A stretch of 64,000 bases of DNA. Source: Cyanomargarita calcarea GSE-NOS-MK-12-04C. GTDB lineage: Bacteria > Cyanobacteriota > Cyanobacteriia > Cyanobacteriales > Nostocaceae. The notes under the pieces are model-generated. The model searched no databases and was not told where the DNA came from. It saw only the letters and a program-made list of their open reading frames with translations. Positions 18,958 to 27,411 of the stretch are shown piece by piece; the first letter of the stretch is position 1; each line of letters starts with the position of its first letter. The translations under genes were made by a program, and so were the position numbers. The DNA lies in assembly GCA_019359595.1 (NCBI GenBank), contig JAHHGZ010000029.1:253-64252 (forward strand), written 5' to 3'.

Positions 18958-19512
18958 ATGCGTTTAGATAACTATAACCTTGGCACTTACACTCCGGGCG
19001 CACCCTACTGGAAGCAACTTTTATGGTACTTTATCGGGTCGCCTTTGGTTGAAAGTTACTGGCTTCCTTTGAACAATTTCAAAGTTTCCTTACTCCGGAG
19101 TTTTGGCGCTAAAATTGGTCAAGGAGTCCGGATTAAAAACGGAGTGCGGGTCAAGTTTCCTTGGCGGTTAACTGTCGGCAATCATGTATGGATCGGCGAA
19201 GATGCTTGGATTGATAACCTTGCTGATGTTACCATCGAAAGTCATGCTTGCATATCTCAAGGCGTTTATCTCTGTACTGGCAATCATGACTGGAATCATC
19301 CCGATTTTAAACTGATTCCCGCCCCAATCTACATTCAAGAAAGTAGTTGGATTGCAGCTAAATCGATAATTGGGCCTGGTGTGACAATTGGTCGAGGAGC
19401 AGTGCTGACTCTCGGTGGAGTGACTGGACGTTCCTTAGAACCGATGACAGTTTATGCCGGGAATCCTGCAGAACCGATAAAGAAGAGGAAAATAACGGAT
19501 ATACGGATGTGA
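18958..19512 (+). CDS. hexapeptide-repeat acetyltransferase, WcaF-like (polysaccharide O-acetyltransferase)
   Basis: 184 aa. It has a left-handed beta-helix hexapeptide pattern (GNHVWIGEDAWIDNLADVTIESHACISQGVYLCTGNHDW..) and high similarity to colanic-acid WcaF-type enzymes. Confidence 0.8.
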   Translation: MRLDNYNLGTYTPGAPYWKQLLWYFIGSPLVESYWLPLNNFKVSLLRSFGAKIGQGVRIKNGVRVKFPWRLTVGNHVWIGEDAWIDNLADVTIESHACISQGVYLCTGNHDWNHPDFKLIPAPIYIQESSWIAAKSIIGPGVTIGRGAVLTLGGVTGRSLEPMTVYAGNPAEPIKKRKITDIRM

Positions 19513-19527
19513 CGGATATCTTCCACC

Positions 19528-19610
19528 AATCCCAATAAGCCCGGAAATAAATTTCACAGCTTTAAGCCTAAACCCATTAAAATGGGTTAAAAAGCTTATT
19601 CAGTAAGCTA
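19528..19610. repeat. partial copy of repeat family B containing hairpin AACCCATTAAAATGGGTT
   Basis: The hairpin at 19571-19588 is identical to 27340-27357. The flanking AGCCCGGAAATAAATT resembles the TIR of the 27.3 kb element. Confidence 0.55.
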
Positions 19611-20134
19611 AAAGCGAAAGCTTTGATATCCAAATGCGTCACATACCAGTCTTTATAAGTACCAGCAACTAAATTTTCTTCAATCAACCGTGCTTCTTCC
19701 AAAAGTGTCCACAAGTTGTGGGTGGCTCGATTCCAAAAGCCTACACTTCCATTTTCTTGAAGACCAGCAACACCATAAATTTTACAAGCTGGACATTGAC
19801 ATTTTTCTAAGTGTTTTAACTCGTCTTGACGAGGAATTGGGCACCAGTCAGGTTTAGCACCTTGAATAAATTCTTCATAGTCGTTTGTTGTTATTTCCCC
19901 ACCACGACTAATAAAGTAGAACGCTCCATTGTCAAGGTAAAGCTTTACTTCTTCCGGGATGCCAAGATATTCTCTAAGACCTTGTTTCATAACTTTACGT
20001 CGAAGCACGGGTCTTTGATGAAATTCGGCGTAGGAAACCATAACTGCTCGCAATTGTGGAAGATAATAAGGAGAGTTTTTATCCCACACGCGAGGTTTGA
20101 TTCCCTTCAGACTGATACCAGCAACAATTTGCAT
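19577..20134 (-). CDS. short tRNA-guanine-transglycosylase (TGT)-like zinc-motif protein
   Basis: 185 aa. CQCPACK followed 20 residues later by ATHNL reproduces the TGT CxCxxC...H zinc site. LYLDNGAFYFISRGGE resembles the TGT catalytic Asp segment (FDCVMPTRNARNG). Only about half of a TGT barrel is present. Confidence 0.4.
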   Translation of the reverse strand: MQIVAGISLKGIKPRVWDKNSPYYLPQLRAVMVSYAEFHQRPVLRRKVMKQGLREYLGIPEEVKLYLDNGAFYFISRGGEITTNDYEEFIQGAKPDWCPIPRQDELKHLEKCQCPACKIYGVAGLQENGSVGFWNRATHNLWTLLEEARLIEENLVAGTYKDWYVTHLDIKAFAFSLLNKLFNPF

Positions 20135-20460
20135 TAATCATCATATCTAGCGATCGCTCTTAACAATTCTGATTGGGAGCGCTTACGTTGCGAACAACCG
20201 AGGATTAGTAGATTTTGGCTGTGTGTAGAGACTTCGCTTGTAAGGTTATCAAGACTATCTTGATCACAAAACTTAACCATTTTAGATGCCATTCCACACG
20301 TAAAGCGCCATACTCGATGAAAAACGCTGATTTTATGAATTACCCCCTGTAACACTAACTCACCCACTACCAAAATCCTCAACTCCGTCACCCACCTCAA
20401 AGCCTCATCATTGATTAAAAACGCTTTGCAGCGAGCCGTCAAAGCCGCCGCAACCTGCAA
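20134..20460 (-). CDS. hypothetical protein, translationally coupled to the TGT-like ORF
   Basis: 108 aa. Its stop overlaps the downstream ATG (ATGA) and it has no recognisable motif. Confidence 0.3.
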   Translation of the reverse strand: MQVAAALTARCKAFLINDEALRWVTELRILVVGELVLQGVIHKISVFHRVWRFTCGMASKMVKFCDQDSLDNLTSEVSTHSQNLLILGCSQRKRSQSELLRAIARYDD

Positions 20461-20637
20461 ACCATCGGGTAACTGAAGGTTAATTTTGAAGCTAGTTTTG
20501 TAACTTCCCCAACCGATAAATCAACAGACGAAGGCACTTCGGAGATGCTGTAGCCCATGTTAATTAGGCATACTGCTGCTTTTAAGAAAGGTTTGGCGTT
20601 CTAAGTCTTAGTAAATTCGTGTTCTTCAATATTCATT

Positions 20638-21423
20638 CTATGTACTCTGCTGTGCGGCAGACTGGACAGCTTCTACATCAACATTAAGCTGTTGAGCAAT
20701 CTGCTCCACGCTCATCCCTGCTTTTAGTAACAGAGGCACAGTTGCTCTCAATATTTCTTCCCTGCCGTCAGCTTTCGCTTCTTGATAAAACCTTGTTTGC
20801 TCTAAAGTTAGTCCCAGCATAGCTTCCACTTCCTCTCTACTCAAAAACGAAAATTTATAAACGGCGATTGTTGTAATAATATCTATTATTTCGCTTTTCG
20901 GCAGTGTGTCTGTTTCTTCTAATTATACCCGCTCAATTAACAGACGAGCTTGCTCCGCCATTGCTTTCTCTGAGGCAATTGTCAACTGCATTAAATTTAT
21001 GGCTACTGGTAGGGTATTGGGAGTGCCCAACTCATCTAAGTAAATGCGCTGTACTTGGTTACTGTTCAAAAATATTCGATGAGTTTTTTTATCGCTTGGT
21101 TCCAAATTGCGGGATGGAAAAATTACGACACAGTACCAGTCATCATATTGAGACTGATTCCGGTTTAAATACATCATTGACTCAGTAAACAATCGATGGT
21201 GTAGAGCTTCATCTTTCTGGAATTGAACTTCTGCGAAAAAAATGATTCTGGGTGTTGTACCCTCTGGAGGTAAAAATACTCCATCAATCCGGAAAGCGGT
21301 TTCTTTTACCTCAACTGATTCAAATCGATAGTTTTGTGCCTGTTGGGGACGGTCATCAACGAATTCAAAAAGCAACCCAGGAAAACGCTTAAAAATTTGG
21401 TAATAAATAGAGTCGCGTCTCAC
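20638..21423 (-). pseudogene. Rpn-family recombination-promoting nuclease/putative transposase (PD-(D/E)XK + DUF4351) interrupted by one in-frame TAA
   Basis: The 166-aa ORF (20923-21423, FFAEVQFQKD core) and the 68-aa ORF (20638-20844, SREEVEAMLGLTLEQTRFYQEAKADGREEIL) are in the same frame. The 26 intervening codons translate to LEETDTLPKSEIIDIITTIAVYKFSFL, matching the family consensus. Only the TAA at 20923-20925 separates them. Confidence 0.7.
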
Positions 21424-27252: not shown

Positions 27253-27411
27253 AGCCCTGAAATAAATTACTCGCTCCGCGAGAAGCAAGCTACACAGCTT
27301 TTAGCTTAAGTAAGCGGTCATCTTACTAAATAAGTTTTTAACCCATTAAAATGGGTTAAAGCTTTAAGCCCGTTCGCGCAGCGTCCCGAAGGGATAATTT
27401 ATTTCAGGGCT
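27253..27411. mobile_element. MITE-like element with 17-bp perfect terminal inverted repeats (AGCCCTGAAATAAATTA) enclosing hairpin AACCCATTAAAATGGGTT
   Basis: The TIRs at 27253-27269 and 27395-27411 are exact reverse complements. The internal hairpin is identical to 19571-19588. The element has no coding capacity and lies in a convergent intergenic region. Confidence 0.6.

Follow-up and report, generated by a model that had tools for sequence, protein, structure and literature searches.

A short transglycosylase-like ORF and its apparent partner in Cyanomargarita calcarea as probable debris of gene decay

Two overlapping ORFs in an accessory region

The window, a 64-kb stretch of DNA from a MAG of Cyanomargarita calcarea GSE-NOS-MK-12-04C (Nostocales), contains a 185-aa ORF (19577–20134, minus strand) that is an annotated coding sequence at NCBI (MBW4670274.1, KME60_23380; ‘hypothetical protein’) and bears the name ‘tRNA-guanine(15) transglycosylase-like domain-containing protein’ in UniRef. 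Immediately upstream lies a 108-aa ORF (20134–20460, minus strand), to which the source annotation assigns no protein accession. The stop codon of the latter and the start codon of the former overlap in the sequence TAATG and share one A at position 20134. This replaces the ATGA overlap given in an earlier note on this DNA; the two ORFs and their motifs are present as that note gives them.

The two ORFs are flanked on one side by genes encoding a GT2 protein, a DUF218 protein, and a WcaF-type acetyltransferase, and on the other by a DUF2887 (Rpn-like) pseudogene (20638–21423, minus strand) in which one in-frame TAA (20920–20922) breaks the reading frame, so that the previously proposed location between an exopolysaccharide locus and an Rpn pseudogene stands. 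The part of the DUF2887 gene downstream of the TAA is still in frame and forms a 68-aa ORF. A promoter scan of positions 19400–20700 yielded no sigma-70-like promoter, and a terminator scan returned one terminator-like hairpin, which is at chance level. No RNA elements or tRNAs were found.

The 185-aa product contains YLDNGAFYFISRGGE, CQCPACK, and ATHNL. Its putative zinc ligands are Cys112, Cys114, and Cys117 (CQCPACK) and His139 (ATHNL), with the spacing CxCx2Cx21H; the corresponding columns are invariant in an alignment of 47 homologues and coincide in profile alignments with the zinc ligands of the archaeosine transglycosylase (1iq8) and of DpdA (7ui4). A database search with the 185-aa ORF retrieved 119 homologues, with a 310-aa TGT-family protein (P0001) as the best match (E = 1e-78). 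The full-length homologues, most of which have a PF01702 domain, are ~290–325 aa long as called and ~340–353 aa long if a conserved N-terminal extension (xIVAGLSLKN) is counted. At the nucleotide level (blastn), the ORF is 91–97% identical to the intact genes of ~341–353 aa in other Nostocales. Judged by these alignments, the ORF descends from the TGT superfamily, with a similarity far above chance, and its CxCx2C...H motif is the homologous zinc site of this superfamily, which upholds the relationship first proposed from the motifs.

Curated models match the 185-aa ORF weakly and in two separate pieces. Residues 45–91 correspond to positions 70–117 of the DpdA profile and residues 104–165 to positions of about 267–356 of the TGT and TgtA profiles, and ~27 residues of the ORF stand in place of ~170 in the models. 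The scores remain below the cutoffs of Pfam TGT (17.3 vs 26.3 bits) and of the NCBIfam models TgtA (17.8 vs 350), DpdA (14.4 vs 200), and tgt_general (11.3 vs 47.6).

Internal deletion and 3' truncation of the transglycosylase-like gene

In the protein alignment, the 185-aa ORF differs from its homologues by one clean gap of ~156 residues and by a divergent C-terminal tail. A blastn comparison with seven Nostocales genes, of which six are intact (L001, L003–L005, L007, and L008) and one is near-intact (L006), resolved the ORF into two collinear blocks that are 468–471 nt apart in the subject sequences and 0–1 nt apart in the window. The 5' block (19831–20137, minus strand) comprises codons 1–101 and 3 nt of the leader; it corresponds to gene nucleotides −3 to 304 with 91–97% identity (96.7% to L006 9998–10304 and 91.5% to L001 5905–6211). 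The 3' block (19624–19829, minus strand) corresponds to gene nucleotides 774–979 with 77–92% identity, encodes residues 259–325 of the intact protein, and includes the zinc site (19718–19801).

The two blocks meet in a hybrid arginine codon, CGT (19829–19831, minus strand), whose first base comes from codon 102 (Gln) and whose other two are the final bases of codon 258 (Ser), in the numbering of the intact gene. Exactly 468 nt (156 codons) were lost in frame, and residues 102–257 of the intact protein are gone. In the parental sequence, the deleted stretch is flanked on both sides by the direct repeat TCAAGA.

The 90%-identity cluster of the 185-aa ORF also includes a fragment of the same TGT-like gene from a 147-kb contig of another genome (P0135, 88 aa), which ends in ...CPIPQ followed by A, adjoining the deletion breakpoint of the window. 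The breakpoint may be shared with the window, or the position may be a deletion hotspot.

Homology to the intact genes ends at 19624. Where the intact gene has its final ~16 codons, the ORF has 15 codons and a stop codon (19577–19623, minus strand) supplied by a short palindromic, dispersed repeat (19553–19615; core AACCCATTTTAATGGGTT), a second copy of which lies at ~27300–27370. On both strands of the window, the exact core has 4 matches, compared with 0.18 expected. One copy of the repeat abuts the 3' truncation, and short-read contigs, among them one of Logan, break there. The ORF is thus short because a gene of ~340 aa (~341 aa in the closest intact copies) has undergone an in-frame deletion of 156 codons and a 3' truncation.

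The interpretation of the ORF as a half-size, minimal, or split-barrel module, which the earlier note had put forward, gives way to a 468-nt deletion from a gene of normal length; none of 688 family representatives (of 1.84 billion) has a conserved half-size architecture. A conserved half-size subfamily was also considered and rejected: the short matches in the family are contiguous fragments or frameshifted pieces, and the one other internally deleted match examined (P0002) stems from a decayed locus. Likewise, tblastn with all proteins of the system rules out that a different frame or another part of the window encodes the missing barrel half, as it finds only the two TGT blocks and a short DUF6884 stub.

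Loss of the catalytic core

The profile of the TGT-like family aligns to both the archaeosine TGT (1iq8; E = 3e-9) and DpdA (7ui4; E = 4e-5), and the catalytic positions can be read from these alignments with the roles assigned to the aspartates of DpdA (PMC10164549). Asp68 of the 185-aa product, which lies within LYLDNGAFYFISRGGE and is encoded at 19931–19933, belongs to the motif YLDNGAF; this motif aligns to DSGSF of 1iq8 and DCGAF of 7ui4, which contain the general acid/base aspartate (Asp95 in DpdA and Asp95 in ArcTGT). The segment LYLDNGAF had been compared with the FDCV segment that holds the nucleophile of bacterial Tgt, but it represents the general acid/base motif (DSGG/DCGAF), and the nucleophile segment itself is absent.

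The other two catalytic aspartates are missing. The motif PQDFIP of the intact family aligns to the base-recognition aspartate (DpdA Asp130), and its invariant Asp103 is located just inside the deletion; the ‘QD’ on the 3' side of the junction stems from the downstream SQDELK and not from PQDFIP. The motif VDSSGW aligns to LFDSAS/SIDST, which contain the nucleophile (DpdA Asp256; ArcTGT Asp249), and the invariant VDSSGWRNRAARG with the nucleophile Asp223 falls into the deleted part. The deletion has therefore removed two of the three invariant catalytic aspartates, the nucleophile among them, and the remnant has no equivalents of Asp130 and Asp256 of DpdA.

The same deletion covers the strands at residues 106–214 in the structural model of the intact homologue P0001, which was predicted with good confidence (pLDDT 90, pTM 0.84) to adopt a TGT fold and matches ArcTGT, QTRT1, bacterial TGT, and DpdA with a Foldseek probability of 1.0. 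With 156 residues missing relative to its orthologues, the 185-aa ORF does not encode a complete (beta/alpha)8 TIM barrel. Its own AlphaFold model is poor (pLDDT 52, two strands) and was based on a shallow alignment of nine sequences; it is consistent with decay but not decisive. Because both the nucleophile and the base-recognition aspartate are absent, the 185-aa product should be unable to catalyse base exchange, and it should also be unable to form a (beta/alpha)8 barrel. The missing barrel and the two missing catalytic aspartates are the decisive argument against a live enzyme.

Composite origin of the 108-aa ORF

The 108-aa ORF is a read-through of two unrelated gene fragments. The distal fragment (20350–20481, minus strand) is the 3' end of a vapC gene encoding a PIN toxin and comprises the last 44 codons (residues 103–146 of 146), with 84% identity to a VapC of Calothrix (P0123). 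It has lost its own stop codon, and the first 102 codons are gone. The upstream part of VapC was found in none of the frames, and the PIN domain is incomplete and lacks the acidic catalytic residues of its N-terminus.

The proximal fragment (20140–20280, minus strand) represents codons 1–47 of a gene for a DUF6884 (DpdC-like) protein. It is 83% identical to P0122 and corresponds to the N-terminal ends of the DUF6884 proteins encoded in the loci L002 and L090. The DUF6884 part of the ORF has no Pfam match. DUF6884/DpdC-like domains have a length of ~135 aa and are characterised by the motifs CxxxK and LSAxxG (PMC11701544); the fragment contains the former (CSQRK) and ends at codon 47, before the latter (LSAEFG). 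Codon 48 of the DUF6884 gene abuts the leader of the TGT-like gene, 5 nt ahead of its ATG.

The overlap of the two ORFs does not reflect a functional coupling. In L001, L006, and L007, TAATG is likewise present at the ATG of the TGT gene, and no ORF from upstream terminates in it. Since the TAATG belongs natively to the TGT leader, the coupling between the 108-aa and the 185-aa ORF is an accident of deletion. We infer that the 108-aa ORF is not a gene.

The suggestion that the 108-aa ORF supplies the missing half of the barrel does not survive this result, because the ORF resolves into vapC and DUF6884 fragments that have no TGT homology. There is virtually no probability that the two ORFs constitute a true DpdA-like transglycosylase of minimal or split type, whose two products would jointly rebuild the barrel and insert 7-deazaguanine into DNA. 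The weak matches to TGT and DpdA profiles, the single base shared by the ORFs, and the Dpd-like neighbours of the parent family (see below) are what speaks for such an enzyme. They are outweighed by the absence of both the nucleophile and the base-recognition aspartate from the entire locus, by the 156 missing residues, which are not encoded in another frame, and by the lack of preQ0 genes in the window (searched with QueC and YhhQ as queries). A fusion of the two ORFs by a frameshift is also ruled out, as they derive from different parent genes (DUF6884 and TGT).

The source of the window is a MAG, and short-read contigs break at the repeat adjoining the 185-aa ORF, which raises the question of whether the deletions are assembly artefacts that conceal an intact gene or cluster in the real genome. 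This is very improbable. A second Logan assembly, made independently from SRR11676926 (L083), reproduces the DUF6884–TGT junction without a difference (100% over 1062 nt), a confirmation that covers this junction only. Exact-protein look-ups of the 185-aa ORF, P0122, P0135, and P0136 gave no match, and those of the neighbouring proteins gave only short Logan contigs. Moreover, an assembly graph would not collapse at a repeat of just 6 nt, the window contains no second copy of any gene of the system, and the presence of four separate junctions together with a nonsense codon in a neighbouring gene fits real decay.

A related arrangement occurs on a metagenome contig (L084; JGI), where an intact vapBC operon lies upstream of the same DUF6884 stub. 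Comparison of L084 989–1210 with positions 20139–20482 of the window places the end of the stub at the same codon (after ...RAIARYD). The right partner of the stub differs between the two sequences and is the 3' side of an HNH gene in L084. A HIP1 site, GCGATCGC, is located 10 nt upstream of the shared breakpoint (14 nt from the HIP1 centre).

The parent operon in other genomes

The intact relatives of the 185-aa ORF form a family of uncharacterised proteins of ~340–353 aa, such as BAZ78743.1 from plasmid6 of Aulosira laxa NIES-50 and LEP3755_02610 from Leptolyngbya sp. NIES-3755. The window sequence is a direct orthologue by descent, with 86–97% identity over the parts that were kept, and has in common with the family the motifs xIVAGLSLKN, YLDNGAF, CxCPAC, and NRATHNLW. 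By contrast, it lacks residues 102–257, the last ~16 residues, and every operon partner.

Among 80 genome loci, the TGT-like gene occupies the 3' end of conserved operons, and in about 50 of them the gene order is DUF6884, NurA (or an unknown protein of ~545 aa), HerA, and TGT. The DUF6884–NurA–HerA–TGT operon is present in L002, L056, L058, and L090 and in about 50 further loci (L009–L082); in L056 and L058, it is combined with a module encoding a sigma70-like protein, an M78 peptidase, and HerA-like, Mre11-like, and Rad50-like proteins.

The cluster closest to the window, which is found in Nostocales, encodes a DUF6884 protein, a sigma70-like protein, an unknown protein, an M78 peptidase, a second unknown protein, and HerA-like, Mre11/SbcD-like, and Rad50/SbcC-like proteins, followed by the TGT. 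Aulosira laxa NIES-50 and Tolypothrix tenuis PCC 7101 each have all nine genes intact on a plasmid of 40,278 bp, with every gene annotated as hypothetical. The plasmid is identical in length in these two differently named strains (plasmid5 of PCC 7101, L005; plasmid6 of NIES-50, L090), and the cluster adjoins parA and an integrase gene on both. The occurrence of the cluster on these replicons suggests that the parent system travels on plasmids.

The best structural and profile match of the parent family is ArcTGT (TgtA; PDB 1iq8; Foldseek E = 5e-9, TMq 0.68, in addition to the profile match given above). The columns corresponding to the catalytic Asp95 and Asp249 of ArcTGT and to its zinc ligands Cys279, Cys281, Cys284, and His307 are conserved in the intact members. 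Unlike ArcTGT, the parent family has no C-terminal PUA or tRNA-binding domains, and it scores 32 bits against a cutoff of 350. With DpdA of Salmonella Montevideo (PDB 7ui4; PMC10164549), the window sequence has in common the ancestry of the TGT fold, the zinc site (CxCx2Cx22H in DpdA vs CxCx2Cx21H in the window), and the general acid/base aspartate. The intact members, however, reach only 25–28 bits with the NCBIfam model of DpdA (cutoff 200) and, judged by their length (~340 vs ~410 aa), lack the large Ins8 of DpdA. They fall far below the curated cutoffs of TgtA, DpdA, and tgt_general alike.

The genomic context of the parent family resembles that of DpdA in part. The family is linked to a gene for a DUF6884/DpdC-like protein and sometimes to QueC or YhhQ: a member of YhhQ/Vut_1, the preQ0 transporter family, is encoded in or beside the operon in 11 of the 80 loci, and QueC is encoded within 10 kb in four of them and again in L085. 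DpdC is listed as a DUF6884 protein (PMC11888242), and the DUF6884 partner of the intact family matches the DpdC models of PADLOC weakly (E about 5e-4) and also matches PDC-M57A (E = 1e-8). Genes for DpdB or DpdD–K are not found in the neighbourhood, and HerA/NurA or Mre11/Rad50-like genes are present in their place. The links to DpdC, YhhQ, and QueC favour, indirectly, a Dpd-like 7-deazaguanine function, in which HerA/NurA would replace DpdB and DpdD–K. As the target, the operon context favours DNA over tRNA.

The Dpd-like context proposed for the 185-aa ORF thus holds for the parent family, with its DUF6884/DpdC-like, QueC, and YhhQ neighbours, but not for the window. A tblastn search with all proteins of the system detected only the two TGT blocks and the DUF6884 stub in the 64 kb, and queries with QueC and YhhQ returned no preQ0-related gene in the window. 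A set of DpdA, DpdB (ParB-like ATPase), and DpdC is not encoded there; the 47-codon DUF6884 fragment is the one trace of DpdC.

No description of the parent operon was found in the literature searched. One system combining TGT and HerA has been reported (PMC12839542), but its composition is different and centred on PglZ and STAND proteins. The intact operon could tentatively be regarded as a new Dpd-like system for 7-deazaguanine modification and restriction or repair of DNA, which would be spread among Cyanobacteriota, Chloroflexota, Acidobacteriota, and Planctomycetota, would once have been present in this lineage, and would often have been inactivated; we consider this possible rather than probable.

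Successive deletions in a formerly larger cluster

The region from 19577 to 20481 is best explained as an accumulation of gene fragments that successive deletions have left behind in an accessory region, that is, as pseudogene debris (probability about 0.9). The ancestor would have had a multi-gene cluster like that on plasmid6 of Aulosira laxa NIES-50 or plasmid5 of Tolypothrix tenuis PCC 7101. A deletion of ~10 kb fused the DUF6884 gene, at codon 48, to the TGT leader 5 nt before the start codon; with the plasmid cluster as a template, ~10.3 kb between codon ~41 of DUF6884 and the TGT start are missing from the window. A second deletion of 468 nt removed residues 102–257 of the TGT-like protein in frame, the last ~16 TGT codons were replaced by the sequence of a short dispersed repeat, and the upstream vapC lost its first 102 codons. 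Together with the DUF2887 gene, the debris extends from 19577 to 21423 and includes at least four deletion or truncation junctions and one nonsense mutation.

Independent decay of the same system is documented also in other genomes. In Calothrix sp. FI2-JRJ7 (L006 8900–11030), a frameshift disrupts the DUF6884 gene, an in-frame stop codon interrupts the TGT gene, and the last 66 codons are all that is left of the SbcC-like gene. In a metagenome contig (L085 1617–3205; JGI), the TGT gene (P0002) has a different in-frame deletion in its core, and HerA retains only the C-terminal half, which appears to be fused to the end of NurA, as its N-terminus begins with a short NurA-like stretch; the NurA part was inferred by eye from sequence resemblance. 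The parent system therefore seems to be inactivated often.

The intact zinc-site residues and Asp68 of the 185-aa ORF count against its interpretation as a pseudogene. Since the deletion has left the reading frame open and in phase, a small protein may still be expressed. The dN/dS values are 0.22–0.52 between the window and its nearest relatives and 0.04–0.44 among the relatives, and the changes specific to the window (three synonymous and six non-synonymous) are within the range of intact relatives, both comparisons being based on too few changes to be decisive.

The open frame, the in-frame deletion, and the intact zinc ligands, together with the intact N-terminal segment and the annotation as a coding sequence, would also fit a remnant that is expressed and has taken on a new, non-catalytic role, for example, as a nucleic-acid-binding protein based on the zinc subdomain or as a regulator. 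The second, independent in-frame core deletion in the distant relative P0002 could be taken to point in the same direction, but the P0002 locus, with its HerA cut in half, is itself decayed. Since the 3' end of the ORF is derived from a repeat, the operon once upstream has been lost together with its promoter context, no sigma-70-like promoter was found in 19400–20700, the model of the product is of low confidence, and no conserved family has the architecture of the remnant, we consider a new role unlikely. Successive deletion of a once larger cluster thus remains the preferred explanation.

In most respects, the region resembles the products of ordinary pseudogene formation in accessory and defence islands, with which it has in common several junctions, a repeat-associated truncation, and decayed neighbours (vapC and DUF2887). 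The sole oddity is the main deletion, which is exactly in-frame and hence left a plausible-looking ORF.

Implications

The outcome is corrective: an ORF that bears conserved motifs and the apparent coupling to its neighbour are products of deletion and not of functional design. A pseudogene annotation is appropriate for the 185-aa ORF, and the 108-aa ORF should be left out of gene calls. Even if the parent operon encodes a new Dpd-like system, the copy in the window would still be dead, and the lead for follow-up is the intact operon in other genomes rather than the locus in Cyanomargarita calcarea.
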